The translations under genes were made by a program, and so were the position numbers. Of a stretch of DNA of 64,000 nt, positions 3,010 through 60,043 are shown in pieces. The stretch comes from Bacillota bacterium (lineage in GTDB: Bacteria > Bacillota > Ch66 > Ch109): contig JBMNLH010000007.1 of assembly GCA_050952625.1 (NCBI GenBank), positions 85,165 to 149,164 of the forward strand. The letters are read 5' to 3'. The first letter of the stretch is position 1. Every line of letters starts with the position of its first letter. The notes below the pieces were generated by a model. That model had not been told where the DNA came from, did no database searches, and saw nothing but the letters and a program-made list of their open reading frames with translations.

Positions 3010-3140
3010 ACTCGTTTAGCTGCGCTGAACATCGGGGCTACTGAGACTTTACTCCACCTGAAGTTTAAACACTGAAGTTTAAACACTGAAGTTTAAACAA
3101 GGTAATCCCCACTTATGAAGGGGGAGTCCTGTGATTCAGT
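3010..3140 (+). repeat. Dispersed palindromic element family A, copy 1, with internal 3x14-bp tandem repeat
   Basis: CGTTTAGCTGCGCTGAACATCGGGGCT...CTCCACCTGAAG...CCCCACTTATGAAGGGGG; (CTGAAGTTTAAACA)x3 at 3058-3099. Confidence 0.8.
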
Positions 3141-3372
3141 GCAATTATGTCTTAGGACCACTTACTACTTCTAGGGGGTGAGAGTCTATAAATTTGTCAA
3201 GTCATAATCTGCCTTCAACAAGGTAGTCATATTTATTAATCCGGTTTAAACCAAGCGCAATGAAGATTTGGAGGCTAACAGGGTGTCTAAACACCCCGCG
3301 GGGAATTGATATATGGATTTTGTCTTTTGACTATTAAATTAAACCACCTATTTTAAATTTCTTAAGAGTGAG

Positions 3373-3903: not shown

Positions 3904-3934
3904 TTTGTAATTTAGGAAAGGAACATGCACGATT

Positions 3935-4765
3935 ATGAAAAAGGTGCTCGGATTGGTCATCTCCCAGAGAAAACTGGGCAACAGCGAACTATTAGTTAAA
4001 GAGATTATGAGCAATATCCCTGAAGAATGCCACCTAGAATTAATCCGGCTGACTGACTTAAAAATCGAGCCATGTAAAGCATGTTATCGCTGCCTGCAAC
4101 CGGACACCGCTTGCCCGACAAAAGATGATTTTAATTATGTAATGAATAAAATTAAAGCGGCGGACGCACTAATTATTGGAATGCCTGTCTATATCCTAGG
4201 GCCACACGGCTACTATAAGATGCTGACCGACCGTTTAGTGGGAGCAGAGAACTACTCCAAATATACGGCCGGTAAACCCTGCGTCATTGTTATCCCCTAC
4301 GGAACAAAGGGGTGGCAAGGATACAGCAAGACTGCCGCTCTGGCCATGCCAAGATTCCTGAAAATGAAACTCATCGACTGTTGGCAGGTTCACGCTACCT
4401 TACCGGCGGAATCACTGTTGAACCCGGATAACCTGGAGTATGCGCGTACCTTGGGTCGCGACCTTTTTGGCAATCGGGAATACCCATATGGCCGCCGAGA
4501 GTGTATTTACTGCGGGTCTGACTTATTCCGACTGCTGCCGGAACGAAAAGTGGAATGCCCTCTCTGCGGAGCCCAAGGGATTCTTGACAGCGACAACCTC
4601 CCCGATTTTTCCATCACAGATTACTGCCGTTTTGCCAACAGAGAGATGGAAGAACATTTTAAAGTATGGTTGGTAGAAATGAAACAGAAGTTTTTAGCGG
4701 AAAAGGATAGTCTAAAAGAGGTTCAGAAAGGCTACGGGGAAAAAGACTGGTGGATTAAACCCTAA
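3935..4765 (+). CDS. Flavodoxin-like iron-sulfur flavoprotein / NADPH-dependent FMN reductase family
   Basis: SQRKLGNS, CKACYRC..C..KDD, ADALIIGMPVY; C-terminal CxxC...CxxC. Confidence 0.85.
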   Translation: MKKVLGLVISQRKLGNSELLVKEIMSNIPEECHLELIRLTDLKIEPCKACYRCLQPDTACPTKDDFNYVMNKIKAADALIIGMPVYILGPHGYYKMLTDRLVGAENYSKYTAGKPCVIVIPYGTKGWQGYSKTAALAMPRFLKMKLIDCWQVHATLPAESLLNPDNLEYARTLGRDLFGNREYPYGRRECIYCGSDLFRLLPERKVECPLCGAQGILDSDNLPDFSITDYCRFANREMEEHFKVWLVEMKQKFLAEKDSLKEVQKGYGEKDWWIKP

Positions 4766-38830: not shown

Positions 38831-39342
38831 TTAATGTCCGGTTACATATATTTTCCATTCTCCGTTATGATGAAGGTACTTTAATTGATCTTCAGTATTA
38901 TTCCTGAGTTCTATATCTACTTCTGCCACCCAAATCGTTCCTTTTTCCGATATTTTATCTTCTATTTGTTTCTGTGCCTTTAAAATTTCTTTGAAGTCCT
39001 CTTCCCTAAATACTTCATGATTAATACGCTCCGGATGGTTCTGTGCTTCTATAACCTCGGCGGGAACTTCTTCAATGGGAATTTCTTTAAAAGGCATACT
39101 TTCATCTTCGAAAATTGGTCTTTCCCTCAATTGGTCGACCGGTATCTCTTTGACAGAAATAACCTTAGCAGAAATAATGGATGGCCCGACGTTATCACGA
39201 AGTAATTCATAAAGTTTCCTCTGGTCTTCTATAGATCCTCGGACATCCAAACAATATTTCATCATGCTATCAATATCTCCGCGCTGGTCAGCTTCAACGA
39301 AATTATTGATAACAGACTCTGCCTCTGCTAAGGTTAAAATTG
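38831..39342 (-). pseudogene. Partner protein C (NTF2-like), 5'-truncated copy
   Basis: Near-identical to 44609-45352 from LTLAEAESVINNF onward; signal peptide region replaced by an IS remnant. Confidence 0.85.
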
Positions 39343-39510
39343 GATCAAGTCCGTATAATGGTGTAGAAATAAAATGAGCCATAAATTCATTTCCTCGGTT
39401 AAGATATAAGTGCCTATCAAATACCAAACCGAGGGAGGAATGAATCCATGACTCAGTTTAATATTACCCTAACCGAAGAACATTTACACGGACTTTTTGT
39501 TTCAAATGGA
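39343..39510 (+). mobile_element. IS256-family left-end remnant
   Basis: GGATCAAGTCCGTATAATGGTGTA end; RBS plus MTQFNITLTEEHLHGLF start. Confidence 0.6.
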
Positions 39511-39737: not shown

Positions 39738-40436
39738 ATGAAAAGCAAAAAAATAATCATGCTTACCAGTGCTTTCTTGTTTTTCATTGGACTAACAATA
39801 TTTGTTCAATCCTCATATGCTAATACTCTAAGCCAAAAAATAGAACAAATAAAGAGAAATGAAATTCATCAAAGATTGGGGGAGGCGTTAAAAGATAACG
39901 TCACCGTTAGTAATTCAGAAAATATAGTAGCTATAGTAAATGGAGAAAATATTTCAGTAAATGAATGGAACTATTATAAAATTTGGGACACTGAGAAAGT
40001 AAAAAATTTTGGAGAAGTAGTTCCTTCCGACCAACAAATTTTAGATAGCCTTGTTAAAAATAAAGTGATTGTGAGTGCTGCTAAACAACAAGGTTTGTAT
40101 CCTAATGAAGAAGAAATTAATTCATATATAAGCGAGCAACGTCAAATTATGGCTAAGGAACGACCTCAGGATGTTTATAACCTTATTAAGGGATGGGGCA
40201 TTAGTGAAGAAGAATATTTTTCTATAATGAAAGATATTTGGGGTGACTCAATTGCGAGGTTAAATTGGTATGATGCACTGCGTAAGAACTCGCCTCAAAA
40301 AGGGAATGAAACTACGGAGGATTATATGATAAGATTGAAAAAGATTTACAATGATGAAGTAGCTAGCTTAGTGGAGAAGCCAAATATAGAAATTACAAAT
40401 CAAGGGATGCTATTGGGACTTAGTTACAGTAAATAA
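39738..40436 (+). CDS. Secreted protein with SurA N-terminal-like chaperone domain
   Basis: Signal peptide; IVAIVNGENIS...ILDSLVKNKVIVSAAKQQGL..NEEEI. Confidence 0.7.
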   Translation: MKSKKIIMLTSAFLFFIGLTIFVQSSYANTLSQKIEQIKRNEIHQRLGEALKDNVTVSNSENIVAIVNGENISVNEWNYYKIWDTEKVKNFGEVVPSDQQILDSLVKNKVIVSAAKQQGLYPNEEEINSYISEQRQIMAKERPQDVYNLIKGWGISEEEYFSIMKDIWGDSIARLNWYDALRKNSPQKGNETTEDYMIRLKKIYNDEVASLVEKPNIEITNQGMLLGLSYSK

Positions 40437-42134: not shown

Positions 42135-42917
42135 TTATTGTATCTTTCCGTCAGATCCCCCTACCTGGAATTCACCTATTACAGTTTCCCCATCAACATC
42201 ATAAAGCGGAATAGTAAATCCCGCTAGAGATTTTTTTGTCATTTCTAAACATTCTTTTTCAGATGTAGGATCCTCCCCATCTAAATCTTTGGAATAAACA
42301 TATCCTACTGTTACTCCATCAACACCCATAGCTAGAATTAAATCCGGTTCATCATCTGGAGAGATAGCATCAAGCCCGCTTCCATAGGTTTGACCGTTCT
42401 TATTCACTTTGTAAGGTTGTTTCTGGGATTCTTCCTGAACGTTACCTGACTTGGCTGATGGCGCATATGGCCACCAATCAGTTGTATAACAATTATAGTC
42501 ATTCCAAAAGTTATTTGAAGCAGTGTAAACTCCAAATTGTCCTTGACTTCTCCAAGAACCATATGGGTTAGGAACTAAGGTTGTCCTGGCCATAACTTGA
42601 GTTGTTTCAGTATTAGTTACCCATCCAGATTCACGGTATAAAGCATCAATTCCATCGTACAATCTAGCTTTTGCCCGCAGGGTACTTACCGGAGTAGTTT
42701 GCCCACCAGACACACCTGCCCAAGTCTGCGCGCTTACCTCAGTTTGATAATAACCAGTAAGTTTAGATACTCCTGCATAAGTCTTATTATTATGATATAC
42801 ATATTTTGCAGAACTCTCTATAGTCTCTGCTAGTGCTAGTGCTAAAGGTGCCCATAAGACTAGAGAAGAGATAACTAATAGGGATGTCAGACACCTTCTC
42901 ATTTTTTTACCTAACAT
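42135..42917 (-). CDS. Secreted two-domain hypothetical protein
   Basis: Signal peptide, beta-rich Tyr/Thr/Trp domain, C-terminal YKVNKNGQTYGS...EPDLI...GYV...IPLYDVDGETVIGEF domain. Confidence 0.75.
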   Translation of the reverse strand: MLGKKMRRCLTSLLVISSLVLWAPLALALAETIESSAKYVYHNNKTYAGVSKLTGYYQTEVSAQTWAGVSGGQTTPVSTLRAKARLYDGIDALYRESGWVTNTETTQVMARTTLVPNPYGSWRSQGQFGVYTASNNFWNDYNCYTTDWWPYAPSAKSGNVQEESQKQPYKVNKNGQTYGSGLDAISPDDEPDLILAMGVDGVTVGYVYSKDLDGEDPTSEKECLEMTKKSLAGFTIPLYDVDGETVIGEFQVGGSDGKIQ

Positions 42918-43238: not shown

Positions 43239-43670
43239 CTAATAACATGTGGAAGAGTATAATGACTTGCTTTCCAACAGATTGCCGGAAGCGTTATAAA
43301 CTTTAGCCGTTGCACATACCCGATACGTACCGTTGACAACGTAATAACTCTCTTCTACAGTGGCAACAGAGACCCCGGTCGATGATGCGGACCATGTCTT
43401 GATTGTATTCCAACTACTACCGGCGGATTTTTGCAGTTCGACAGTAAGTATTGTTGTGTGCGAACTATCGTAAGCTGAAGCAAGCCCCATACAGGTGGCT
43501 TTTCCCGTCGAGTTGATCGATAACCCCGGACTTAATAGAGATATGTACGTCCATTGAGGAGCGACCACTCCTTGTGTCCCTACGTTTGTTGTCTGGCCAG
43601 CTGCGTAAGCCGGAACGATGCAGACAACAGTCATAAGGACAAGGATACCCAGGCAGATGAACTTTTTCAT
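43239..43670 (-). CDS. Secreted protein A, copy 3 (possibly DUF6147-like)
   Basis: Signal peptide, APQWTYI, ELQK..G.SW.TIKTWS, G.YRV; paralog of 55105-55536 with altered last residues. Confidence 0.8.
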   Translation of the reverse strand: MKKFICLGILVLMTVVCIVPAYAAGQTTNVGTQGVVAPQWTYISLLSPGLSINSTGKATCMGLASAYDSSHTTILTVELQKSAGSSWNTIKTWSASSTGVSVATVEESYYVVNGTYRVCATAKVYNASGNLLESKSLYSSTCY

Positions 43671-44442: not shown

Positions 44443-44608
44443 CACCTTGACCAGCAATGAGTGCCAGCTATTGGTCTAGCCCCCTAGAAAGGTATTACAA
44501 AATTTGTTTAGCTCTACTGGCAAGCTCGGATAAAGAGAAAGGCGTTTTAGCGTGACAAGTTGCACTAAAACGCCTTTCCAGAGTCTTGTATATTTGGATT
44601 AATTACTA
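44443..44608 (-). repeat. Conserved cassette end with terminator (copy 2)
   Basis: CACCTTGACCAGCAATGAGTGCCAGCTATTG...TTACAAAATTTGTTTAGC...hairpin. Confidence 0.9.
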
Positions 44609-45352
44609 TTAATGTCCGGTTACATATATTTTCCATTCTCCGTTATGATGAAGGAACTTTAATTGATCTTCAGTGCGGTTCCTGAGCTCTATATCTACAT
44701 CTGCCACCCAAATCGTTCCTTTTTCCGATATTTTATCTTCTATTTGTTTCTGTGCCTTTAAAATTTCTTTGAAGTCCTCTTCCCTAAGTACTTCACGATT
44801 AATACGCTCCGGATGGTTCTGTGCCTCTATGACCTCGACGGGAACTTCTTCAATGGGAATTTCTTTAAAAGATATATTTTCATCTTCGAAAATTGGTCTT
44901 TCCCTCAATTGGTCGACCGGTATCTCTTTGACAGAAATAACCTTAGCAGAAGCAGAAATAATGGATGGCCCGGAATCATGAAGTATTTCATAAAGTTTCC
45001 TCTGGTCTCCTACAGATCCTCGGACATCCAAACAATATTTCATCATGCTATCAATATCTCCGCGCTGGTCAGCTTCAACGAAATTATTGATAACGGACTC
45101 AGCCTCTGCTAAGGTTAAAGTTGGGGGTTTCTCACTAATGTAATCAGCGTTGTACACTTCAATGGTTCTAATGCCATCAGCGTCGTGCACTTCAATGGTT
45201 CTAATGCCATCATCAGCGTCGTACACTTCAACAGTTCGAGTTGACGATTTCTCACTAGCATTTTTGGCAATAGCATTAAAAGAAAATCCCAAGATAAGGA
45301 TAAGACTAACAGCCAGTGTCAACGTAACCGTCCACTTGCGATTTATTTTCAT
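44609..45352 (-). CDS. Secreted/anchored partner protein C, NTF2-like (copy 2)
   Basis: Signal peptide; AESVINNFVEA..RGDIDSMMKY..DVR; C-terminal HNGEWKIY; 3x RT(V/I)EVx(D/N)AD repeat. Fold is inferred. Confidence 0.75.
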   Translation of the reverse strand: MKINRKWTVTLTLAVSLILILGFSFNAIAKNASEKSSTRTVEVYDADDGIRTIEVHDADGIRTIEVYNADYISEKPPTLTLAEAESVINNFVEADQRGDIDSMMKYCLDVRGSVGDQRKLYEILHDSGPSIISASAKVISVKEIPVDQLRERPIFEDENISFKEIPIEEVPVEVIEAQNHPERINREVLREEDFKEILKAQKQIEDKISEKGTIWVADVDIELRNRTEDQLKFLHHNGEWKIYVTGH

Positions 45353-45369
45353 TAATATACCTCTCCTTT

Positions 45370-45798
45370 CTAATTTTGATATATTTCTCCATAACCAGCA
45401 TAAGCTTGGTTCCCATTTGTGACCGTAATCTCAAGTGTAGCCGCACTATCTGCTTTTGGTGTACTACTCATTTCCGCATAAACAGCAGGACCAGAATAAT
45501 TATATACACTGGATGAGTAACTGCACCTACTGCCAACTCCAAAGACGTCACGAGTATAAACGGAATAATTTATGGTATAGGGATTATAGGGAGTGGAAGT
45601 TGACCACTGCCGCAAATTAATATACAAAGGATTCGTATTTGGAACATTGAAAGGTGCTGTTTTAATAAAATTTGTAATTTGAAAACTATAATCTTTAATT
45701 TGTGTCGCTTGTGCCTCTTTTATATCTGCATTGACAATCGTAGGAATAAGCATAGTAACTAACAAGAAACTAATAATCATGTAGCGTTTAACCTTCAT
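45370..45798 (-). CDS. Secreted variable protein B (copy 2, intact)
   Basis: Signal peptide (..IVNA); FNVPNTNPLYINLRQW; C-terminal YAGYGEIYQN. Confidence 0.8.
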   Translation of the reverse strand: MKVKRYMIISFLLVTMLIPTIVNADIKEAQATQIKDYSFQITNFIKTAPFNVPNTNPLYINLRQWSTSTPYNPYTINYSVYTRDVFGVGSRCSYSSSVYNYSGPAVYAEMSSTPKADSAATLEITVTNGNQAYAGYGEIYQN

Positions 45799-46294
45799 AA
45801 TCCAGCCTCCTTATTACTTTATTATCTTCTTACTTAATTATCAAGGTCGCTGTTCAAAATGAGTTACACCAATAAAAAGCAGTTAGTTAAAATCAACAAA
45901 TTTAAAGCATAGGCATCACCTCCTTTAATAAACTCTCGACATCTCCACAATGCTCCTATTTTCATGGTATTTCACTTTGTTTATCTTGAACCTACTCTCA
46001 GGATGTCCTTAAATCCTGGTAGCTTTTGTGTTTTCCGGCAGAGCAAAACAAACCACACGGGATTCTTTTTTCTCGGCCATTGGGATTCCACATCAGCTCC
46101 AGGCGGCTAACCTCCTAGGTCTCCCGGCATCAGCGTGCCTAATTCCTTCGTCCAGCCTATCCTAGAGATGGAACGTCAGTGATGCTCCCCTACGCTGGGT
46201 CAGTGCCCTCAAGGTGAAATTCAATCCTGCTGCACGGTCCTCGATTGTCAAAGTTTTTCCTAGTCAGACAAATTGACGATTATTGTCAACTAAT

Positions 46295-46730
46295 TCAATA
46301 TATTACCGTGGAAGAGTATAATGACTTGCTTTCCAACAGATTGCCGTATATGTTATAAACTTTAGCCGTTGCACAAACCCGATAGGTACCGTTAATAACG
46401 TAATAACTCTCTTCTACAGTGGCGATGGAGACCCCGGTCGATGATGCGGACCATGTCTTGATTGTGTTCCAACTACTACCGGCGGATTTTTGCAGTTCGA
46501 CAGTAAGTATTGTTGTGTGCGAACTATCGTAAGCTGAAGCAAGCCCCATACAGGTGGATTTTCCCGTAGAGTTGATCGATAACCCCGGACTTAATAGAGA
46601 TATGTACGTCCATTGAGGAGCGACCACTCCTTGTGTCCCCTACGTTTGTTGTCCCGTCAGTTGCGCAAGCCGGAACGACGCAGACAACAGTCATAAGGAC
46701 AAGGATACCCAGGCAGATGAACTTTTTCAT
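46295..46730 (-). pseudogene. Secreted protein A, copy 2, +1 frameshift
   Basis: Extra C in GTCCCCTAC (~46637-46640) versus GTCCCTAC in copy 3; split across two ORFs. Confidence 0.8.
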
Positions 46731-46840
46731 AAAATAAAACCTCCTTTAAAATATCTTTCAATAACAAAAGACAACCAAAGGAGGTTTTTGCAACAGATTT
46801 TTTTATTTTTTTAGAAAATAATTTCTTCACTTATTTAAAT

Positions 46841-49482
46841 TTATTCTATATATTTTACCCCTTCGGCCATCTTTACCGCCATATCTTTCTCCGTCTGGGC
46901 TCGAATCATAAACATGCGTTTATTCATTGACCAGATGATGGTAACCAGAGAGTTTTTCACGACAACGGTTCCCTCATGTCCGTTGATGCTGATGGTTTCA
47001 ATGACGGAAGCATTTTCCGTATCCAAAGCGGGCTTGTTGCCTTCACTTAATTCCATATAAGTTATAAACAAGCCCTGCGGATTTTTAAATTCGATTCTTC
47101 TTAAAAGTTCGCTATTAGAGCTATCACTGACTTTATATCCGTCCGGTATATAGGTCGGCACATAAGCATTGTGCCAATCTATAGCCACACTGCCCCCCCT
47201 CCGAACCATTCTCATTGTTCTTTAACTCAAAGGACGTATATTCCTGTTGGATTTCCATTAAATCCCATGTTCATCATGTCGCCCTAAACCTTTTTGATTT
47301 ATAACAAAAGGAAACTATTTCCACAAATTATGCGTTTAGTGATATCGGTTTGAGATAGATTTCTTCCGGGTTAAACCCGGCCCAACGGACCATATTTAAA
47401 GCTTGACGGTTAACATTATCCGGAAAATATCTCTGACCCTGAATACTTACTGTTTGAATAGTACCCAATACTTCCAGTATAGTTTGCACTGAAGGTCTGT
47501 CTGTACTTTTGTTTCCCGGTAATTTCACTGCTTCTCCTCGTTCCTTTAGGGCCTTGCGAACTCGGTACTCCAGGTAGGAAGCCAGCAGTAAGACCAGGAT
47601 AAACACGTAGCCTAGCGCATAAATTCGCTTCGGGTTTTCCAAGTATACTGGGCCTAAATATACGCGGTTTTTGAGGAATCGAAACTTGGTTTCAATTGAG
47701 ATCTGCCGTTTATACTCTAATAAAATCCCTTGATCATCGTATTTTTGACGATCTTTCACATTGGCGATCAGCACGAAGGTAGATTCCATTTGGAGCAGGT
47801 ACTGGTAAACCTCTGGTTTTATATCGCCAACACTGACTTCAGCGTGATATGTCGTGGTAATCGTCGGTTCTTCTCCATTGCGGGGTTTTCCTCGGTGACC
47901 GTAAGACTTTTTGACGCAGATCTGAACCGTTCCTTGAACCTCAAAGCCTTTTCGCTGGCATTCTTGAAGGAAGACATCTAAAGCAGCCTGGGCATCAGGT
48001 TCACAGGCAAAAGCCTTAGTTTTTAAGCCTTTACTCTGTTTAATTAACTCCTCTTTTTGCTTCCCGATCCGTTTTTGTAAGGTCTTTTCTTTCTGGGCTT
48101 CCAGGGAAGAGGAGTGAACTACCACAAAATCATAAGTGTGTCCTTCCAGTTCATGATGGACCAAATAGGTTCGGTAGTGAGAAGCCTTTTTCGAGTTGGT
48201 TTCACTGACTATCCCAATGTCATGCCAGGAGTTTTCGGCCCAGGCCAGTGTTTTTAGTTCTTTCGCCAGGTTATAGGTTTCCGGCAGTCGAGAGATAAAC
48301 TGAACGTGCTGCTTGGTCAGATTGGCTAAAGATTCGTTAGAGATCAGGGCACAGTCACCAACAAAAACGACATCCCGATAACCTTGGGTATCAAAGAACT
48401 CTTTCATTTTCAAGGCTGCTTCCGGGTTCCATTTGTTATCAGATTTGTTCCCAGAGAGCATTTCACCCATGACTACTTGGCCGTTTTGTTGCACTGCAGC
48501 CCCAATTTTGAATTGTTTAAGGTCCGGGCGCAGATCCTTACTGTGGCCTCTATTAATCGTAAAATCGTTGTATGGCTCTACATCATAGATTCCTTCGACC
48601 GATATGGAAGTAGTATCTAGATGAACCGTGGAGATATCTAAATTGTGAATATCAAGCATCACCAAGGATACCAAACTGATCAGTTTGTTCAAATCAACTT
48701 CAGCTAGTTTATCTAAGGCCCGGCCGTAGGCATGTTCGTTAAGCTGATCAATTGATAATTCCACATCGGGAAACAGGTTAGATAAATCCTGCTCAGCCCA
48801 AAATTGATGCACTTTCCATAAAGGCATCCGGCCGCAGAAGATACTAATAATGAGGGTTTCGATCAGGAGACCCGGAGAGATTTTAGAATTATCTTCTCTC
48901 CATAATACTATCTCGTTAACCAGTTCCCGAATCTTAGCTAGACGACAGAGCTTGGTGACTACCGGAACAGCCATTGGTTTAAGGGTCTTAATCCCAGCAA
49001 ATATTGACAATCGAATCAACTCCCAAAGAAATATCTTAGAGAGTTATATTCGACATAAATTTACCGGTCCCTGCCAGATACTGGACATTTTTTAAATATT
49101 TTTTCTGTAAAGTTTTGACATGCCGAATGCGGGTTAAATAATTCAGCACCCTTACTCTAACTGCTTGGACGGTCACCACGGTGGTGCATAGTATAACAAA
49201 TATGATCAGCATAGCAACTGCCACTCTGTTTAAGACCTTCAGAATGTGCTGCCTTCTGGCATAAGCCTTCGGCTTTTTAAGATGGACATCCAGTAATTGG
49301 CTGAATTTTTGGACTGCTTCCTTGGAAGGCAAAAATTCGGGATCATCTTTGAGCTTTTCTTTTTCTTCCAGAAAAAGCTGGCCTTCTTTTTCCGCTACAT
49401 CGTACATGACCAATTTAAACAGACTGTCTTCATATTCCTCGTATAGCTTTTTCCGAATTTGTTCCTGACTGTTATTTGGCAT
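46841..49482 (-). pseudogene. DUF4367-type anti-sigma factor, copy 2, interrupted by an IS and frameshifted
   Basis: Both halves match 55640-56404; C7 run at 47193-47199 versus C6 in the intact copy. Confidence 0.88.
47264..49133 (-). mobile_element. IS1634-family insertion sequence (transposase 47328-49019)
   Basis: HLDTTSISV.G.Y, GHSKD.RPDLKQ, IETKFRFLK; 6-bp TSD TTAAAT at 47258-47263 and 49134-49139; imperfect IRs CCC...TTC..CATGTC. Confidence 0.92.
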
Positions 49483-50044
49483 GCTTATTCATCTCCTTAT
49501 CCATGAGGTCTTTGGCTTTTCTTCGGGCTCGTGTCAAATACTGCCGGACGCTGTCCGGAGATATTTCAAAAATTCTCGCTATCTCCCGATCCTTCATTTC
49601 CAATATGTACTTAAAATACAACAGGTCTTTCTGCTTCTCCGGAAGCCTCAATATGGCATTACCCAGCTCTTCTATTTCTTCCTGATGGACGACCCTTTCT
49701 TCCATGGTATCTCCAAGGTTGGGGATCCTTTCCGCCAGATCCCGATCTTTTCCATAATACGTATGTTTTTTCTGTACATCACGGTGTTTTATAAAGTTAA
49801 TGGCTACACTCTTAGAAGTATAGACAATATAAGCAGTCCTTTTGCAACTGTCTAGAGTTCGAATTAAAGATATTTTTTCAATTAGTTTTATGAAAGTATC
49901 GTTGATCAAATCCTCCACATGGTTCGCGTCGTGGGTAATATTGTAAACAGTCTTTCGCACCAACCCATAATAATCATGATATAGATTCAGCATAAAGGCC
50001 TTACTCTCATCGCTTTCTATTGCGACGATTAACATCATGATCAT
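49472..50044 (-). CDS. ECF RNA polymerase sigma factor (copy 2)
   Basis: EDLINDTFIKL region 2; LPEKQKDLL...EIARIFEISPDSVRQYLTRAR region 4; overlaps the anti-sigma start. Confidence 0.92.
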   Translation of the reverse strand: MIMMLIVAIESDESKAFMLNLYHDYYGLVRKTVYNITHDANHVEDLINDTFIKLIEKISLIRTLDSCKRTAYIVYTSKSVAINFIKHRDVQKKHTYYGKDRDLAERIPNLGDTMEERVVHQEEIEELGNAILRLPEKQKDLLYFKYILEMKDREIARIFEISPDSVRQYLTRARRKAKDLMDKEMNKHAK

Positions 50045-50158
50045 TACGAATCACATCCTTTATTAGGATTATACATAATCCTAATAAGAATTTGTGATAA
50101 GACAATGAAGGAATCTCCAAAATCGTAAAATTGTGCTTAAGAATTTTTTTGCACTAAA

Positions 50159-50188
50159 TGTTGCATAAACTTTTAAAGATTGTCTTTT
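50159..50188 (+). promoter_or_regulatory. Candidate ECF promoter motif upstream of the divergent B/C pair
   Basis: TGTTGCATAAAC-N9-TTGTCTTTT; same boxes and spacing, different spacer sequence. Confidence 0.55.
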
Positions 50189-50546
50189 ATTGATAAGACG
50201 ACTTTAAAGGGAAATTTGCCCATTAAATAAAGGCATAAAATATTCCGGGTTTTTAGGAGATGTACTACCGCTCCGTTTAAACAGGTGTCACTTAAATACT
50301 CAAGGATTAACAGTTTGATATAAATAAATGGAAAGGAGGTGATGAAGTTGAAAATGAAAGGTCTAAGTTCCACCATATCAATTGAAGTAAGTATGGTGAA
50401 GCGAACACACTTACTCCTTTGGGCTCCCCCGATCATCAATTTAAACTAATCTTCGACCGGTTTATGAAAATGTTGTAATTTACCAGGAAGTTGATTTGTT
50501 TAATCAGTAAGAAAAATTGCAGAATTTGTGAAGGGAGATATTTTTT

Positions 50547-50984
50547 ATGAGCAAGAAGCATATTACTTTAACCGTTTTTCTTTTGGTTTTCCTGCTTAGC
50601 ATTCCGGTAATAACTAATGCACAAGATGATTCAAAAAATCTATTAAGTTCCAGATCAATGCTTGATAGTTATCAATTTTCGGGATTGTTGTCAAATAACA
50701 TTTACTCCCAGGACACCTTTAACACTAATGGAACCAATATACTGTTAAATTATCGGCAATGGGACAATGTTCCTCAATGTATCCAAACTGTTAGATACGT
50801 AATATGTAATCACGGTTATATTTATGATACCGACTATGTATACAATACCTCTGATGTCGATGATGAAAATCAGGCTTATCAAATGTATTTAGGAGCCCCA
50901 CCTGCCGGCACAGACAGATCATTAAAGATAATTAATGAAACTCGGGTATATCCCATTAGCGGTTTCGGAGAACTGTATGAATAA
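50547..50984 (+). CDS. Secreted protein B, divergent paralog
   Basis: Signal peptide; FNTNGTNILLNYRQW and ISGFGELYE align with FNVPNTNPLYINLRQW and YAGYGEIYQ. Confidence 0.75.
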   Translation: MSKKHITLTVFLLVFLLSIPVITNAQDDSKNLLSSRSMLDSYQFSGLLSNNIYSQDTFNTNGTNILLNYRQWDNVPQCIQTVRYVICNHGYIYDTDYVYNTSDVDDENQAYQMYLGAPPAGTDRSLKIINETRVYPISGFGELYE

Positions 50985-51023
50985 CGATACATCTATAAAA
51001 AAATAAAACGGGAGGAAATAACA

Positions 51024-51437
51024 ATGCGTATTCTCAGTCAAAAATACTCTTGGAAGATCGTTATTGTATTAGGAGCAATGTTAACTTTTGTATTCGCTGT
51101 ATATGCAGTAGCATCATCTGAACAAACCAAGGAAGAAACAATAGTAGAAACCCTATTAGATAAACATATTAGCGCTGTAAATAGTGGTGATGTTGATACT
51201 CTAATGAAAATGGCAATCGATGTAAGACAAAGCCCAGAAGAAACCCGAAAGCTCTACACTCGATTACGCGGAAAAGATAATTTCACTCCAGTATCTTATA
51301 CTATAAACAAAATAACTAAAGAAGGTGAGTATATATTAGTTGATACAACTTTTAAAATGAAAGATGGTCACACGGAGAACCCGACATTAAAAATTATTAA
51401 TCATGAAGGGGAATGGATATTTTATGTCACTCCGTAA
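51024..51437 (+). CDS. Partner protein C, short divergent paralog (NTF2-like)
   Basis: GDVDTLMKMAIDVRQSPEETRKLY and NHEGEWIFYVT align with GDIDSMMKYCLDVRGS..DQRKLY and HHNGEWKIYVT. Confidence 0.75.
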   Translation: MRILSQKYSWKIVIVLGAMLTFVFAVYAVASSEQTKEETIVETLLDKHISAVNSGDVDTLMKMAIDVRQSPEETRKLYTRLRGKDNFTPVSYTINKITKEGEYILVDTTFKMKDGHTENPTLKIINHEGEWIFYVTP

Positions 51438-51730
51438 TAAAGCTTAATAGTCAATATGTTTAATCTTAAAAATAGAATGAGTAGGAAGCGGATTACCTCG
51501 CTAATCCCAGGTTGACGAAATTTAAATAACTTTTCAGCCCTTGCGTCTTCCAGTAGGAAGTAGCAAGGGCATTATTTTCAGTTACTGAACATAATACTAG
51601 AACCCTCGAACCCTATACAGTTGGTAGAGAATATAAACGCCAGATTAGATTGAAACCAAGTTTAAATTCCTCAACAAGGATGCGGTTTCCGAATGTCAAC
51701 GACTTGTTGGGACAGGTAGGGAGGTAAAGC

Positions 51731-51933
51731 ATGACTGATTAAAATCAGGTGATGGTTCGAGCAGCCGGGGTGCTGATGGCGATAAGTGTTCTGGCCCGGT
51801 TAGCCGGGTTTATTCGGGAGCAGGCGATTGCTGCTAAGTTTGGCACCAGCATGGCGACTGATGCCTATGTGGTGGCTTATACAGTGGCGAATACCGTTTA
51901 TTTGATCAATCGGTGGGGCATTAGCCACGGTTT
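51731..51933 (+). pseudogene. murJ: 5' remnant of lipid II flippase MurJ
   Basis: VRAAGVLMAISVLARLAGFIREQAIAAKFGTSMATDAYVVA; early stop, frameshift, IS insertion, truncated near 53283. Confidence 0.8.
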
Positions 51934-53268
51934 GAGTGTGTAAAATAAATTGTGCTTCTGCTCTTTCCGAATATAAAATGAAACGGAAAGGCAGGAATAC
52001 ATATGGAGAAGAAGAAACTGGTCTCCCGAGCTGAGATCAAGCAATTCATCAAAGAGAACGACCTAAAAAGCGTTGAAGACATCCAGAATGTCCTTAATGA
52101 CCTCTTTGCCGAGACCCTACAAGAGATGCTGGAGGCCGAATTGGATACCACCCTAGGCTATGAAAAGAACGATGTTCAAAACAAAAGGACAAGCAACCGG
52201 CGTAATGGGCATAGTACTAAAACTGTACGCAGCGAATTCGGAGAAATCGACATACAGATCCCCTGGGACCGCGAAGGCGAACATGATCCTCTAATCGTCA
52301 AAAAGCATCAGAAGAATGTGACCGGTATCGAAGACCAAGTATTGGCTCTCTACGCCAAAGGGGTTAGCACTCGTGATATCCAGGATCATTTGGAGCGCCT
52401 GTACGGAATTGAGGTTTCGCCTACTCTAATATCTAATATCACCAACAAAATCATGCCTATGGTCAAGGAGTGGCAGAACCGGCCGCTGCAGAAGATCTAT
52501 GCAGCCGTCTTCCTGGATGCAATCCATTTTAAAGTCAAGCAGGACGGCCAGATTGTAAACAAGGCAGCCTATATGGTAATAGGCATCGACTTGGATGGCA
52601 ATAAAGACGTATTGGGCATCTGGATCGGGGAAAACGAATCTGCCAAGTTCTGGCTCTTAAACGAACTTAGAAACCGTGGAGTTCAGGATATTCTAATCGT
52701 TTGCGTGGATAATCTCACTGGGTTTAGTGAAGCCATATCGGCCTGCTACCCGGATGCTGAGATCCAGAAGTATATCGTGCACCAGGTGAGAAATTCCATA
52801 CGCTATGTCTCATACAAAGATGTTAAGAAGATAACTGCCGCCTTAAAGACCATTTACACGGCATCTTCTGAGCCCGCTGCTTGCGAAGAGCTAAACCAAT
52901 TTGAAGCTACTTGGGGAGACAAATATCCACTGATAGTCCGGTCCTGGCGCAACAACTGGGCGGAGATCTCGACGTTTTTCAAGTATCCACCTGAGATTAG
53001 AAAAATCATCTATACTACCAATATGATCGAAAGTTATCACCGGCAGCTCCGCAAAGTAACCAAGGGTAAGAGTATTTTCCCAACGGATGAAGCGCTCTTA
53101 AAGATGCTATATATGGCCACCCAAGATGTCTTGAAGAGATGGACCGGCCGGGTCCAAAACTGGGGGCAAATTCTGCTACAGCTGTCTATTTACTTCCCCG
53201 ACAAAGTTAAAGCGCACCTACGATGAACAGACGGAAGAAAGGCAAAGCACAAAATTATTGACAGACCC
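51934..53268 (+). mobile_element. IS256-family insertion sequence (transposase 52003-53226)
   Basis: RRNGH, LYAKGVSTRDI, FLDAI, YTTNMIES; IRs GAGTGTGTAAAATAAATTGTGCTT / GGGTCTGTCAATAATTTTGTGCTT; 8-bp TSD CACGGTTT. Confidence 0.95.
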
Positions 53269-53283
53269 CACGGTTTCCTACCT

Positions 53284-53454
53284 CACCTTGACCAGCAATG
53301 AGTGCCAGCTATTGATCTAGCTCCCTAGATAGGTATTACAAATTTTGTTTAGCTCTACTGGCAAGCTCGGATAAAAAGAAAGGCGTTTTGGTGCAACATT
53401 GACAAGTTGCACTAAAACGCCTTTCCAAAGTCTCATATATTTAGGTAATTACTA
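53284..53454 (-). repeat. Conserved cassette end with terminator (copy 1)
   Basis: Matches 44443-44608. Confidence 0.9.
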
Positions 53455-54126
53455 TTATTTTCCATCTATATACATCTTCCACTCGCCATTATGATGAAGA
53501 AACTTTATTTGATCTTCAGTGAGCCCATTCCTGTACTTCATATCTACTTTCGCCACCCAAATCGTTCCTATTTTTGATATTTTATTTTCTATTTGTTTCT
53601 GTGTCTCTAAGATTTTTTCGCATTTCTCTTCTTTAAGTTCTTCACGAGGAATGTCCTCCGGGTTGTTCATTGCCTCAATGACCTCGGCGGGAACGTCTTC
53701 AATGGGGATTTCTTTAAAAGATATACTTTCATCTTGGATAATTGGTCTTTCCCTCAATTGGTCGACGGGTATCTCTTTGACAGAAATAACCTTAGCAGAA
53801 ATAGTAAATGGTCCATCAGCAATGAACAATTTATAAAGGTCCCTCTGGTCTTCTACAGTGCCTCTAACATCCAAAATATATTTCATCATGCTATCAATAT
53901 CTCCGCGCTGTTCAGCTTCAACGTAATTATTGAGAATAGACTCAGCCTCTGCTAAGGTTAAAATTGGGGGTTCTTCACTAATGTAATCAGCGTTGTACAC
54001 TTCAACGGTTCGAGTTGACGATTTCTCACTAGAATTTTTGGCAATAGCATTAAAGGAAAATCCCAATATAAGGATAAGACTAACAGCCAGTGTAACCATA
54101 AATGTCCACTTGCGATTTGTTTTCAT
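53455..54126 (-). CDS. Partner protein C (copy 1)
   Basis: Start MKTNRKW at 54126 after GAGG; paralog of 44609-45352. Confidence 0.8.
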   Translation of the reverse strand: MKTNRKWTFMVTLAVSLILILGFSFNAIAKNSSEKSSTRTVEVYNADYISEEPPILTLAEAESILNNYVEAEQRGDIDSMMKYILDVRGTVEDQRDLYKLFIADGPFTISAKVISVKEIPVDQLRERPIIQDESISFKEIPIEDVPAEVIEAMNNPEDIPREELKEEKCEKILETQKQIENKISKIGTIWVAKVDMKYRNGLTEDQIKFLHHNGEWKMYIDGK

Positions 54127-54145
54127 AAGTAAATACCTCACTTTT

Positions 54146-54614
54146 CTAATTTTGATATATTTCTCCATAACCAGAATAAGCTTGGTCCCCTTTCTTGATC
54201 GTAATATGAAGTGTAGCTTGATCCCCTTTCTTGATCGTAATATGAAGTGTAGCTTGATTATCTTGTACTGGTGCTCCACTCATTTGCGCATAAACAGCAG
54301 GACCGGAATAATTATATACGCTGGATGAGTAACTGCTCATCTTGGGAGTCCCAGTGGGTGTGTGCGTAAAAACGGTATATTCTATGGTATAGGGAGTATA
54401 ATCAGATGAAGTTGACCATTGTCGCAAATTAATATATAAAGGATTTGAATTTGGAACATTAAAAGGCGATGAGTAAACCCAATTTTTAATATTTGAGAAA
54501 GTATAACTTTTAATTTGTGCCGCTTGTGCCTCTTTTATATCTGCATTGACAATCGTAGGGAATAAGCATAGTAACTAACAAGAAACTAATAATCATGTAG
54601 CGTTTAACCTTCAT
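54146..54614 (-). pseudogene. Secreted variable protein B (copy 1), +1 frameshift in signal peptide and a 36-bp in-frame duplication
   Basis: Same N-terminus as the gene starting at 45798; ATTCCCTACG versus ATTCCTACG; QATLHITIKKGD twice. Confidence 0.85.
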
Positions 54615-55104
54615 AATCCCGCCTCCTTATTACTTTATTATCTCCTTACTTAATTATCAAGGTCGCTGTTCAAAATGAGTTACACCAATAAAAAGCAATT
54701 AGTTAAAATCAACAAACTTAAAGCATAGGGATCACCTCATTTAATAAACTCTCGACATCTCCACAATGCTCCTATTTTCAGTATTTCACTTTGTTTATCT
54801 TGAACCTACTTTCAGGATGTCCTTAAATTCCTGGTAGCTTTTGTGTTTTCCGGCAGAGCAAAACAAACCACATGGGATTCTTTTTTCTCGGCCATTGGGA
54901 TTCCACATCAGCTCCAGGCGGCTAACCTCCTAGGTCTCCCAGCATCAGCGTGGTCTAATTCCTTCGTCCGGCCTATCCTAGAGATGGAACGTCAGTCATG
55001 CTCCCTACGCTGTGTCAGTGCCCTCAAGGTGAAATTCAATCCTGCTGCACGGTCTTCGATTGTCAAAGTTTTTCCTAGTCAGACAAATTGACGATCATTG
55101 TAAT

Positions 55105-55536
55105 TCAATATATTACCGTAGAAGAATATAATGATTGGCTTTCCAATAGGTTGCCGGAAGCGTTATAAACTTTAGCCGTTGCACATACCCGATAAGTACC
55201 GTTAACAACGTAATAACTCTCTTCTACCGTGGCGATGGAAACCCCGGTCGATGATGCGGACCACGTCTTGATTGTGTTCCAGCTACTCCCGGCGGATTTT
55301 TGCAGTTCGACAGTAAGCCTTGTTGTGTGCGAACTGTCGTAAGCTGAGGCAAGCCCCATACAGGTGGCTTTTCCCAACGAGTTGATTGATAGGCCTGGAC
55401 TTAACAACGATATGTAAGTCCATTGAGGAGTGATCACTCCTTGTGTCCTGTTTGTTGTCTCGCCAGCTGCGCAAGCCGGAACGACGCAGACAACAGTCAT
55501 AAGGACAAGGATTCCCAGGCAGATGAACTTTTTCAT
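55105..55536 (-). CDS. Secreted protein A, copy 1 (possibly DUF6147-like)
   Basis: Intact paralog with signal peptide and two conserved Cys in the mature part. Confidence 0.82.
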   Translation of the reverse strand: MKKFICLGILVLMTVVCVVPACAAGETTNRTQGVITPQWTYISLLSPGLSINSLGKATCMGLASAYDSSHTTRLTVELQKSAGSSWNTIKTWSASSTGVSIATVEESYYVVNGTYRVCATAKVYNASGNLLESQSLYSSTVIY

Positions 55537-55639
55537 AAAATAAAACCTCCTATAAAATATCTTTCAATAACAAAAGACAACCAAAGGAGGTTTTTGCAAC
55601 AGATTTTTTAACTTTTTAAGAGAATATTTTCTTTTCTTC

Positions 55640-56404
55640 TTAATCTATAAATTTCACTCCTTCAGCCATCTTTACCGCCGTCTCTTTATCCGTCTGGGCC
55701 CGAATCATAAACATGCGATCATTCATTGACCAGATGATCGTAACTAGAGAGTTTTTCACGACAACTGTTCCTTCATGTCCATTGATGCTGACTGCTTCAA
55801 AGGTGGAAGCATTTTCTGTATCCAGCGCGGGCTTGTTGCCTTCGCTTAATTCTGTATAGGTGATAAACGATCCCTGGGAATTTTTAAATTCGATTCTTTT
55901 TAACAATTCGCTGTTGGTGCTATTGCTGACTTCAAATCCGTCCGGTATATAGGTCGGGACATAAGCATTGTGCCAATCTATAGCCACACTGCCCCCCTCC
56001 GAACCGTTGTCATTGTTCTTTAATTCAAAGGACGTATATTCCTGTTGGATATCCATTAAATAATTCAGCACCCTTACTCTAACTGCTTGGACGGTCACCA
56101 CGGTGGTGCATAAGATAACAAGTACGATCAGCATAACAACCGCTACTTTGTTTAATGCCTTCAAAATGCGCTGCCTTTTGGCGTAAGCCTTCGGCTTTTT
56201 CAGATGAGCATCCAGTTGTTGGCTGAATTTTTGGACTGCTTCCTTGGAAGGCAGAAATGCCGGATCATCTTTGAGCTTTTCTTTTTCTTCCAGAAAAAGC
56301 TGGCCTTCTTTTTCCGCTACATCGTGCATGACCAATTTAAACAGACTGTCTTCATATTCCTCATACAGCTTTTTTCGAATTTGTTCCGGACTATTATTTG
56401 GCAT
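55640..56404 (-). CDS. Membrane-anchored anti-sigma factor with DUF4367-type extracellular domain
   Basis: Single TM; YVPTYIPDGF, LDTENA, VSINGHEG, IIWSMND; follows the ECF sigma gene. Confidence 0.85.
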   Translation of the reverse strand: MPNNSPEQIRKKLYEEYEDSLFKLVMHDVAEKEGQLFLEEKEKLKDDPAFLPSKEAVQKFSQQLDAHLKKPKAYAKRQRILKALNKVAVVMLIVLVILCTTVVTVQAVRVRVLNYLMDIQQEYTSFELKNNDNGSEGGSVAIDWHNAYVPTYIPDGFEVSNSTNSELLKRIEFKNSQGSFITYTELSEGNKPALDTENASTFEAVSINGHEGTVVVKNSLVTIIWSMNDRMFMIRAQTDKETAVKMAEGVKFID

Positions 56405-56966
56405 GCTTATTCATCTCCTTATCCATGAGCTCTTTGGCTTTCCTTCGGGCTCGTGTCAAATATTGCCGAACGCTGTCAGGAGATATTTCGAAAATTTCTG
56501 CTATATCCCGATCCTTCATTTCCAATATGTACTTAAAATACAACAGGTCTTTCTGCTTCTCCGGAAGCCTCAATATGGCGTTCCCCAGCTCTTCTATTTC
56601 TTCCTGACGGACGATCCGGTCTTCCATGGTGTCTTCAAGGTTGGAAACCCTTTCTGCCAGATCCCGGTCTTTTCCATAATACGCATATTTCTTCCGCACA
56701 TCTCGGTGTTTTATAAAGTTGATGGCCACACTCTTAGAAGTATAGACAATATAGGCGGTCCTTTTGCAACTGTCCAGAGTTCGAATTAAAGAAACTTTTT
56801 CAATTAGTTTTATGAAAGTATCATTGATCAAATCCTCTACATGGTCCGCATCATGGGTAATATTGTAAACGGTCTTTCGCACCAGACCATAATAATCATG
56901 ATATAGATTCAGCATAAAGGCCTTATCATAATCGCCTTCCATTGCGGCGATTAACATTATGATCAC
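56394..56966 (-). CDS. ECF RNA polymerase sigma factor (copy 1)
   Basis: Near-identical to 49472-50044. Confidence 0.92.
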   Translation of the reverse strand: MIIMLIAAMEGDYDKAFMLNLYHDYYGLVRKTVYNITHDADHVEDLINDTFIKLIEKVSLIRTLDSCKRTAYIVYTSKSVAINFIKHRDVRKKYAYYGKDRDLAERVSNLEDTMEDRIVRQEEIEELGNAILRLPEKQKDLLYFKYILEMKDRDIAEIFEISPDSVRQYLTRARRKAKELMDKEMNKHAK

Positions 56967-57040
56967 TTAAATCACATCCTTATATAAGGATTATATAAGG
57001 ATTACAAACAACAATTGGTAACAGAAAATGAAGGAATCGA

Positions 57041-57221
57041 GATAAGGAGAAAGGCGTTTTAGTGTGACAAGTAGCACTAAAACGCCTTTCCAGAGTCTTG
57101 GATATTTATATTAATTACTATTAATGTCCGGTTACATATATCTTCCATTCTCCGTTATGATGAAGGAACTTCAATTGATCTTCAGTGCGGTTCCTGAGCC
57201 CTATATCTACTTCTGCCACCC
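57041..57221 (-). pseudogene. 3' fragment of protein C gene plus terminator (copy 0)
   Basis: WVAEVDIGLRNRTEDQLKFLHHNGEWKIYVTGH* followed by the GAAAGGCGTTTTAG hairpin. Confidence 0.85.
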
Positions 57222-57336
57222 ACTTTAATCTGGTGGTTGCAAAACAGGTCGAATTACAGTTTCAGGGTCTCGGCCAGAGTGGTCCTACTCGTGCTAATTT
57301 TGGAGCTAATTATGATTGTTCGTAATAATTTAGACC

Positions 57337-59318: not shown

Positions 59319-59905
59319 CTAAGCATCGGGAAATTGCTCATTTCGATACTTCCTAATTGCCTCTAAAAACTGCTCCCCGTATTTCTTAAACTTAATTTCG
59401 CCTACTCCGGGGATGGCTAGCATGGACCGGGCATCCTTTGGCTGGGAGTGGCACATTTCCCGCAAGGTGCTGTCGTGAAAAATAATATAAGGCGGCACCT
59501 TTTCCCGCTCCGCGATTTGTTTCCGCAAGACCCGAAGTACCCCAAAAAGCGAGGCATCCGCGTCGATGGCCTGTTTCCAGCGGGGCACCCGCTGTGTCAC
59601 TCGTTCTTCATTCCGCAGGACGGGAATTACCTTTTTCCGCAGTTGCACGATCGGAAATTTACTCTCCGTTAACTTCAGATACTCCTCGGCAATTAACAAA
59701 TTGATCAGGTTGATGATTTCCCGCAACGAAATTTCATCAAAAAGAAACTGTTCCTGATTGCGCGTCCTTTCCGTATCACTCAAACCCGCATGGTATTTCC
59801 CGACTCGGTATCCTTTACTGTGCAAATAATCATAAAGACTCTCCACCTCTTTGCGGGTAGCTGCATAGATAATCCCGGTTTTATCCCGATGGTCATCGAT
59901 ATATA
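59319..59905 (-). pseudogene. recQ: RecQ helicase remnant, 5'-truncated with an internal deletion
   Basis: TGIIYAATRKEVE...YHAGL..joined directly to the RQC tail and HRDC (VPPYIIFHDSTLREM). Confidence 0.85.
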
Positions 59906-60043
59906 AAGTCTGGTTTAGTGACCCCCTTAACCACGGAAAAAAATAAATTGGCCCGATCAAATCCGGCAACATAGACGTTCGGGTTCTGTAAGGTTAATAG
60001 ATTGATAATATCCTGCTTAACCTTAAGAACGCAGTTTTAATTT

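Follow-up and report, generated by a model that had tools for sequence, protein, structure and literature searches.

Paired genes for an exported jelly-roll protein and a probable NTF2-like partner in a Bacillota bacterium: a possible bacteriocin-like effector and its neutraliser

A 64,000-nucleotide stretch of the genome of a Bacillota bacterium from an anaerobic digester (GenBank assembly GCA_050952625.1, contig JBMNLH010000007.1, positions 85,165 to 149,164; hereafter the window) carries three copies of a two-gene pair, here called B and C, whose products are predicted to be exported and whose database relatives bear only the name 'hypothetical protein'. The first pair lies on the minus strand. 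Its B gene (B1, 45370..45798) encodes a 142-aa precursor with a Sec-type signal peptide, presumably cleaved after VNA, and a jelly-roll beta-sandwich of ~13 kDa, and its C gene (C1, 44609..45352) encodes 247 residues comprising a signal peptide or anchor, a repeat linker and a probable NTF2-like domain with an acidic insert of ~70 residues. The second pair, on the same strand, consists of B2 (54146..54614), a paralogue with 68% amino acid identity to B1 that is broken in this assembly, and C2 (53455..54126), an open gene for 223 residues with 76% identity to C1. The third pair is read from the plus strand and includes B3 (50547..50984; 145 aa, 33–34% identity to B1 and B2) and C3 (51024..51437; 137 aa), a minimal C with a signal or anchor and the NTF2-like core. 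All B-like and C-like stretches found by searching the whole 2.9-Mb assembly (genome 95.9% complete) fall within the window.

An earlier note on this DNA, made from the letters alone, had described these three pairs, and every peptide block that it quoted is present in the translations. It had also taken the third pair for a distant homologue without the acidic insert that most C proteins conserve, which is borne out by profiles built without the protein in question: B3 aligns to the B profile with an hhalign E value of 1.3e-21 (probability 99.4%) and C3 to the C profile with E 4.4e-11 (97.2%), skipping the ~70 residues of the insert. The extra C copies on which the note relied do exist, but as remnants and not as working orphans. 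One (38831..39346, minus strand) is truncated at its 5' end, lacks a signal peptide and keeps 91% identity to residues 76–247 of C1 at a dS (synonymous substitutions per synonymous site) of 0.07; the other (57124..57225, minus strand) is a 34-residue stub of the 3' end located just upstream of a sigma factor gene.

The note placed the B2-C2 pair correctly and missed that B2 is not intact here. An additional C at 54558–54560, within the signal-peptide codons, throws the gene out of frame beyond codon 19, and at 54185–54256 a segment of 36 bp is present twice in tandem. An intact 143-aa form of B2 is on record (database protein P0019), and contigs from public sequencing runs (X numbers) differ in the lesions: the X5 contig is devoid of the extra C, those of X4 and X5 are devoid of the duplication, and the X2 contig has the extra C. 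Both lesions are thus polymorphisms of recent origin. B1 and B2 had diverged before they arose, since P0019 has the same sequence in intact form and lesion-free contigs exist. Metagenomes of bioreactors and biogas fermenters from three studies have contigs with the B2-C2 stretch, and B and C alleles are present in 20 digester metagenome runs belonging to 18 studies. A single 168-nt contig from an RNA library lies on B2 and gives a weak hint of transcription, DNA being able to occur in such libraries; in the RNA run X19, 3 of 30 bins are covered and the others are uninformative.

Outside the window both families are rare. A word-based search of 5.8 billion proteins returned two proteins for B1 and three for C1, those of the window included, and a C profile recovered 10 proteins among the same 5.8 billion. 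The B profile matched eight of 1.84 billion representatives, namely four forms or fragments from the window, three new clusters (P0009, P0011, and P0012; 137–138 aa) and one spurious hit, the 2018-aa immunoglobulin-repeat protein P0013. This profile had no match in 40 relatives of the host genome and one copy each in 3 of 107 genomes of the family of a Syntrophomonadaceae metagenome-assembled genome (G041). A metagenome scan for further loci yielded close kin only, a tblastn search with B1 of phage and plasmid records gave no match, and no paper on these proteins was found in the literature searched through the neighboring domains DUF4367 and DUF6147.

Wherever B is intact, C follows it. In all eight loci with an intact B (B1, B3 and, outside the window, L005, L006, L007, L008, L010, and L011) C begins 11–39 nt after B; in this count L005, L006, L010, and L011 are close kin, L012 belongs to the same contig as L008, and the most divergent B proteins, P0011 and P0012, are not included. 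In turn, every C gene with readable upstream DNA comes after a B gene or a stub of one. Loss is asymmetric: B is broken and C open in both cases of decay (B2/C2 and L009), while an intact B without an intact C occurs in none of the eight. In L009 (7893–8675) an open C of 209 aa stands behind the last 14 residues of a B gene, with a BlaI-like fragment upstream and broken pieces of an HTH_38-domain transposase ~0.9 kb further upstream.

Judged from its sequence and a structural model, the B protein is exported by a Sec-type signal and folds as an all-beta jelly roll of ~13 kDa. Inspection of the sequences shows an n-h-c region and an AxA site in both B and C. In the AlphaFold2 model of B1, computed from an alignment of 10 sequences, residues 1–28 correspond to the signal peptide and a nine-strand all-beta domain starts at residue 31, from which block pLDDT values range between 86 and 96 (mostly 93–96; about 94 overall). 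Assuming AxA cleavage, mature B proteins have a mass of 12.5–14.7 kDa and an isoelectric point (pI) of 4.3–8.1, and consist of a single domain of 115–120 residues that includes no trafficking or repeat region. The conserved core comprises an NxRQW motif and a C-terminal GYGE[IL]YQ strand, in which N61/R63/W65 and Y136/E138/Y140 of B1 may form a pocket. No Pfam or NCBIfam family is reached above its cut-off, and PHROGs and PADLOC gave nothing. The weak leads were all below cut-off (MrkDrd, E 0.0066, in one of 10 members; WxLIP_PGBD in three of 10, best E 0.062; DUF2712 in two of 10), and an Atlas cluster labeled 'Lmo1656 family', scored 0.93 for B, was not backed by an NCBIfam hit.

Structural comparison of B1, by Foldseek and by an all-against-all structure aligner, recovered generic jelly rolls only, in a flat list of Z 9.7 to 7 that falls within the range stated by the aligner itself as common background. 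Among the neighbors are PNGase domains, carbohydrate-binding modules (CBMs), a TNF-family ligand, viral capsid protrusions, Cry and Vip domains and PirA. The CBM matches (CBM16, Z 9.2; CBM22, 8.7; CBM6, 8.5; CBM36, 8.3) superpose with a root-mean-square deviation of 2.5–3.2 Å over 96–108 residues at 6–12% sequence identity, and the Atlas structure rows for B are CBM_4_9-like (TM 0.56–0.58). The Foldseek check proposed in the earlier note thus gave binding-type jelly rolls of a generic kind. A fold of this sort would also suit a surface or binding complex with no antagonistic role, in which B is a lectin-like protein of CBM type that binds an envelope polymer or a glycan, C is an exported or membrane-held NTF2-like protein serving as its tether, chaperone or regulator, and the genes form part of an envelope-stress or cell-density regulon; surface variation would then be driven by changing ligands or by phage or predator pressure. 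This explanation, one of two serious rivals of the reading preferred below, is doubtful. The best structural neighbors of B and its near-neutral to acidic character speak for it, whereas no carbohydrate-binding family is detected by sequence, the fold scores are those of background, and neither the loss of B with retention of C in both known cases nor three diverged pairs in one genome with such extreme patchiness would be predicted.

The alternative named in the note, a fibre or pilus subunit (B) with its assembly factor (C), found no specific support and is very unlikely. Jelly-roll subunits do build the endospore appendages of Bacillus and one such structure, 7a02_A, is present in the fold list, but it stands far down that flat list (Z 7.2, rank 44). 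Only ~7 residues precede the first strand in mature B, which leaves little for donor-strand exchange, and the surroundings contain no sortase, pilin motif or further assembly genes.

C is exported and acidic, and is probably NTF2-like. Mature C has a pI of 4.5–5.4 on the assumption of AxA cleavage (4.7 for C1), and a lipobox cysteine is absent. The linker of C1 (45150–45260, residues 40–67) contains two extra copies of a ~10-residue unit that is single in C2, a small repeat expansion. The model of C1, with a pLDDT of only 53, shows an N-terminal hydrophobic helix, short beta repeats, three helices (81–96, 100–106, and 114–126) and four strands (134–145, 213–223, 228–236, and 239–244), the insert following the first strand. 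This arrangement fits the NTF2-like lead provided by several sub-threshold matches: Lumazine_bd_2 in three of seven members (best E 0.0049 for C2, 18 bits against a cut-off of 22.1; E 0.066 for C1), SnoaL_2 in one of seven (C3, E 0.031) and NCBIfam Rv0361_Cterm in C3 (E 2.7e-5, 24.4 bits against a cut-off of 37), to which Atlas feature matches of C3 to DUF4878 and MecA_N (0.90–0.92) may be added. No Pfam or NCBIfam family reaches its cut-off, nothing below E 0.06 was found when the C profile was compared with the PDB by sequence, and PHROGs and PADLOC returned only a weak match of C3 to phrog_806, a group of unknown function (E 0.0052).

In their architecture C proteins resemble the exported NTF2-like proteins of the DUF4878/Rv0361 type, which have an N-terminal signal or anchor and one extracellular NTF2-like domain; they differ in scoring below the curated cut-offs, in the ~70-residue acidic insert of most members and in their position behind B or a B stub. 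For DUF4878-type proteins, secreted or lipid-anchored putative ligand binders, a role in ligand binding has been proposed (PMC3924330), and this would favor a surface-binding complex.

A complex of B1 (residues 29–142) and C1 (residues 76–247) was predicted with a median ipSAE of 0.48 (runs 0.62, 0.48, and 0.42), compared with 0.21 for the best of three controls. In the calibration of this score 58 of 80 solved complexes and 2 of 110 mismatched pairs attained the mark; at ipSAE values of 0.60 or less, those that did so were only seven of the 80 solved complexes and both of the mismatches that passed. The runs, made with shallow alignments, agree in at least 73% of contacts with partner pLDDT values of at least 81. 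The prediction gives weak support to B:C binding, the odds of which it raises a little, and is silent on specificity; it fits a surface-binding complex equally well.

The first and second pairs are the terminal genes of a minus-strand module that is duplicated in the window and has the order ECF (extracytoplasmic function)-type sigma factor, DUF4367 membrane protein, A, a spacer of ~490 nt, B and C. Module II (53284–56966) is complete apart from B2. Its sigma gene (56394..56966), upstream of which lies the C stub mentioned above, encodes Sigma70_r2 and r4_2 domains and scores 82.4 bits with TIGR02937 against a cut-off of 42.9; sigma-70 regions 2 and 4 are the ones present in ECF sigma factors. 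The gene that follows (55640..56404) overlaps it and encodes a protein with one membrane span, as seen by eye, and a C-terminal DUF4367 domain (68.4 bits against a cut-off of 22.1). Although none of the known anti-sigma domains was detected in this protein, its place after the sigma gene and the overlap between the two genes make it a putative anti-sigma factor. A (55105..55536) is an exported protein of 143 aa with a DUF6147 match below cut-off (E 0.0075); the possibility that it is a relative of B was ruled out, the two being unrelated on comparison. Module I (44443–50044) has the sigma paralogue at 49472–50044, a DUF4367 gene in two parts (49036–49482 and 46841–47215), split by an insertion sequence (IS) whose transposase (47328..49019, minus strand; DUF4277 and DDE_Tnp_1) lies between them, and a frameshifted A gene (46295–46730). 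The sigma genes are preceded by two different AT-rich palindromes (50045–50100 and 56967–57010), each overlapping a TATAAT-like hexamer, which may be operators. At the other end, a hairpin read directly from the sequence (44537..44578, minus strand), ~30 nt past the C1 stop codon and related to a hairpin 3' of the C stub at 57124, is terminator-like, although a scan for consensus promoters and terminators gave no signal above shuffled sequences and did not list it.

Sigma, DUF4367 and A genes upstream of B-C occur twice in the window and again in L008, where the full order including the spacer is kept; in L007 they are nearby, ~3 kb away, with an anti-sigma fragment beside B. L011 has a different arrangement, with genes for an AgrC-type kinase (HATPase_c_5, E 6.9e-15), AgrB (E 3.8e-39) and a LytTR regulator (E 6.2e-25) directly upstream of B-C, and in L006 and L010 the upstream open reading frames (ORFs) are similar in sequence or size to these Agr-like genes. 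Found under two kinds of regulators, B-C thus behaves as a portable cassette. A whole recQ gene (590 aa, 2535–4307) lies upstream of the Agr-like genes and B-C in L011, and the window contains a recQ-like remnant at 59319–59972 reduced to the RQC and HRDC tail, so that a similar island neighborhood appears to exist in both genomes.

Regulators of both kinds are, by analogy, what one would typically meet at loci for bacteriocins and exoproteins. Envelope functions are commonly under the control of ECF sigma factors, a point that counts for a surface-binding complex. The same neighbors bring up the view that the DUF4367 domain of the anti-sigma factor, or else C, senses B (or A) as a secreted signal or a ligand for self-recognition; the pairs would then be specificity variants of a ligand and its receptor, serving kin recognition or signaling. 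B-C does lie downstream of sigma/anti-sigma or quorum-sensing genes, B varies in blocks, and C and the C-terminal domain of the anti-sigma factor come next in variability by dN/dS (the ratio of nonsynonymous to synonymous substitution rates; 0.53 and 0.31, respectively). This view is nevertheless quite improbable: L006, L010, and L011 carry B-C without sigma, anti-sigma or A, so that such a receptor is not obligatory, and Agr systems already have a peptide signal of their own.

Comparison of modules I and II gives dN/dS values of 0.13 for A, 0.18 for sigma, 0.27–0.31 for anti-sigma, 0.53 for C and 0.90 for mature B at a similar dS across the genes (0.25–0.39), which makes B the fastest-evolving gene of the module; mature B1 and B2 differ by 56 nonsynonymous and 17 synonymous changes. 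With respect to the Syntrophomonadaceae loci, sigma, anti-sigma and A are 75–83% identical, B 46–50% and C 36–41%. The contrast drawn in the earlier note between a conserved B scaffold and discrete variable blocks is visible in sliding windows of the proportions of nonsynonymous (pN) and synonymous (pS) differences: pN is 0.02 and pS 0.44 in the block PFNVPN...RQWSTS, whereas pN is 0.30–0.39 and pS 0.09–0.31 in the variable stretches, and three blocks have pN equal to or above pS. The variable blocks of B1 span residues 36–48, 77–92, and 109–130. Several variable positions of B1 alternate along predicted strands (36/38/40 and 77/79/81/83), a pattern to be expected of a single exposed face. The identities of B and C track each other (r 0.96 over 21 pairs, which are not independent), which linkage alone would also produce.

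The DNA identity between the two modules is a mosaic in which tracts of 96–100% lie beside tracts of 63–80% irrespective of gene borders. The spacer and the signal-peptide codons of B are 96–100% identical and mature B 63–88%; the spacer of module I (45799..46294, minus strand) retains 96–98% identity to that of module II (54615–55104) despite the dS of 0.25–0.39 in the flanking genes. Gene conversion or recombination has therefore shaped the blocks, with or without selection. As to the spacer itself, a core of ~45 nt is also kept in the spacer of L008, and no Rfam family or plasmid match was found. A candidate motif is common to the DNA upstream of the B genes. In three digester metagenomes the summed contig depth rises to 55, 186, and 785 in the bin 54920–55000, against ~5–20 next to it, and there are loose ends at 54973 and 55004. 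A short segment of the spacer is therefore common to much more abundant DNA.

Mosaic identity, together with a dN/dS of B that is not clearly different from 1, is what would be expected if the region were mostly in neutral decay, i.e., a segmental duplication eroding in an IS-rich island, with blocks produced by gene conversion or recombination and relaxed constraint. The B2 pseudogene, the frameshifted A at 46295–46730, the IS-split anti-sigma gene and the two truncated C copies are in line with it. Nevertheless, the divergence of B1 and B2 predates the lesions of B2, the conserved blocks are under strong purifying selection, the pair is open in several genomes of another family, and the RNA-library contig on B2, as a weak hint only, points the same way; decay as the main cause, the second serious rival of an effector with its neutraliser, is unlikely.

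The reading that appears best, held at a probability of about 0.35, is that B is a bacteriocin-like, Sec-dependent exported effector and C its exported cognate neutraliser or immunity protein. B and C would form a co-transcribed cassette whose two products are exported and act together outside the cytoplasm. B would be a small secreted jelly-roll effector combining a conserved core with fast-changing blocks, and C, acidic and probably NTF2-like, would bind and neutralise it; expression would be switched on by the ECF sigma/anti-sigma pair or by Agr-like quorum sensing. The genes, their adjacency, the export signals seen by inspection, the fold of B, the rarity, the differences in rate and the lesions of B2 are observed; we infer, for this scheme, co-transcription, signal-peptide cleavage, control by the neighboring regulators, B:C binding and toxicity. 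Export of C is what immunity against an envelope-acting toxin needs, and an effector with its neutraliser explains the strict B-then-C pairing, the block-wise change of B, the three diverged pairs, the patchy distribution, the regulators and the asymmetric loss. A wider and doubtful version of this proposal is that B represents an undescribed class of Sec-exported jelly-roll bacteriocins or kin-discrimination ligands, in which a few hypervariable surface blocks set specificity, an adjoining gene provides the NTF2-like neutraliser, and the cassette is exchanged among anaerobic-digester Firmicutes under ECF-sigma or Agr control.

A number of observations weigh against an effector with its neutraliser. 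Above the cut-offs of Pfam, NCBIfam, PHROGs, and PADLOC, B contains no toxin, pore-forming or enzyme domain, and its nearest structures, in a flat list of background range, are carbohydrate-binding modules and other ligand-binding jelly rolls. Mature B lacks the cationic character of classic bacteriocins. The assignment of C as NTF2-like comes from sub-threshold matches and a poor model, and the Pfam Imm-NTF2 families do not match C even at E values up to 1. The extra C copies in the window are truncated and represent debris of IS-linked rearrangement instead of working orphan immunity genes. A dN/dS of 0.9 in B is equally expected from relaxed constraint, the mosaic identity seen in the sequences of the modules, attributable to gene conversion or recombination, could create blocks in the absence of selection, and the tracking of B and C is expected anyway from adjacent, co-inherited genes. 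Finally, after B-C in L007 (9753–12708) come genes for an ABC ATPase and for a DUF1430 membrane protein, the start of which seems to have become a separate 73-aa ORF. They might have suggested a transport or self-protection function; a link to B-C was rejected, as this arrangement was found in L007 only, a transposase fragment lies between, and these genes have no homolog in the host genome at its 95.9% completeness. The probability is kept at the value given because of the missing toxic domain, the binding-module fold and the non-cationic B, and because relaxed constraint and recombination can mimic much of the pattern. Of the effector-immunity idea of the earlier note, there remain the pairing in eight of eight loci, the fast change of B, the two cases of B lost and C kept, the weakly supported complex and the precedent of NTF2-like immunity proteins; the absence of a toxin domain and the truncation of the orphan C copies do not agree with it.

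If this function holds, the closest parallels to the working of B-C would be operons that combine a bacteriocin with its immunity genes, and those polymorphic toxin systems in which the immunity protein is NTF2-like. From its sequences it is a member neither of the lactococcin 972 family nor of a defined polymorphic-toxin family. Lactococcin 972 (Lcn972) is a Sec-dependent beta-sandwich protein, smaller than the ~13-kDa mature B. As in B-C, the gene of an exported protein is followed by candidate self-protection genes; the partner in B-C is, however, an exported NTF2-like protein and not an ABC transporter, and B1, B3, and 10 B members had no match to the Pfam or NCBIfam models of this family at E values up to 1. 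The DUF1430 and ABC ATPase genes of L007, which we take to be of the same kind as orf2-orf3 of the Lcn972 cluster, do not adjoin B-C, given the intervening transposase fragment, and were seen in that locus alone. In PMC4055356, the Lcn972 cluster is described as one operon in which the gene of an exported protein bacteriocin precedes the self-protection genes orf2-orf3, lipid II being the target.

Polymorphic toxin systems (reference 11 of PMC3924330) are similar in having a small partner gene directly downstream, diversified paralogous pairs, leftover partner copies and, probably, an NTF2-like partner. Non-catalytic NTF2-like domains are described as immunity proteins of such systems (PMC3924330). 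C lies directly downstream of B in 8/8 loci and co-varies with it (r 0.96), as an immunity gene would, and linkage alone suffices for this. B-C departs from these systems in that B is a single Sec-signal domain that bears no recognizable C-terminal toxin domain, the leftover C copies of the window are truncated, and an Imm-NTF2 match is lacking at E values up to 1.

NisI is a lipoprotein that confers immunity outside the membrane, where it intercepts the exported bacteriocin. The proposed C would, by analogy, likewise be an extracytoplasmic immunity protein intercepting an exported bacteriocin; it differs in the absence of a lipobox cysteine and in its other probable fold, and its predicted binding is only weakly supported. 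PMC4055356 gives nisI as the gene for nisin immunity. CBM16, CBM22, CBM6, CBM36, and CBM4_9 share with B a jelly-roll beta-sandwich of the same size (Z 8.3–9.2), whereas B has 6–12% identity to such modules, matches none of the families and is not attached to an enzyme. A binary toxin of the PirA/PirB type was considered and rejected: PirA is a weak Foldseek match to B (3x0t_A, E 1.5e-3, TM 0.37/0.42) and C is unlike PirB, a pore-forming partner of over 400 aa.

The surroundings of the pairs are rich in mobile elements. The third pair stands on the opposite strand between modules I and II and adjoins a Mutator-family (IS256-type) transposase gene (52003..53226, plus strand; Transposase_mut, E 1.6e-115) that separates it from module II. 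The segment from 38.8 to 44.4 kb includes an extra A copy (43239–43670), a DUF6431 gene, an rve-type transposase and the truncated C. Module copies, broken genes and transposases therefore identify the region as an IS-ridden island of segmental duplications. Pairs of ORFs with equal length elsewhere in the window have members that are unrelated in sequence and are therefore not IS copies. The island also encodes two further exported proteins, one of 260 aa with no family (42135–42917) and one of 232 aa with weak peptidyl-prolyl isomerase (PPIase) matches (39738–40436). Pfam and PADLOC returned nothing for a 610-aa ORF at 60044–61876, where the G+C content is 28%.

What would be new here, if the proposed function holds, is the pairing of a jelly roll with an NTF2-like protein, two new protein families and their occurrence in two regulatory contexts. 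An effector with its neutraliser would constitute a new fold pair for interbacterial antagonism in Gram-positive bacteria, and syntrophic anaerobes of digesters are organisms in which almost no competition systems have been studied. The three diverged pairs, together with natural alleles in broken and intact form, provide cognate as well as non-cognate partners with which specificity could readily be tested. Even if the two proteins turned out to be a surface binding pair, they would represent a new and very narrowly distributed family, with the NxRQW / GYGE[IL]YQ core as a testable candidate binding site.

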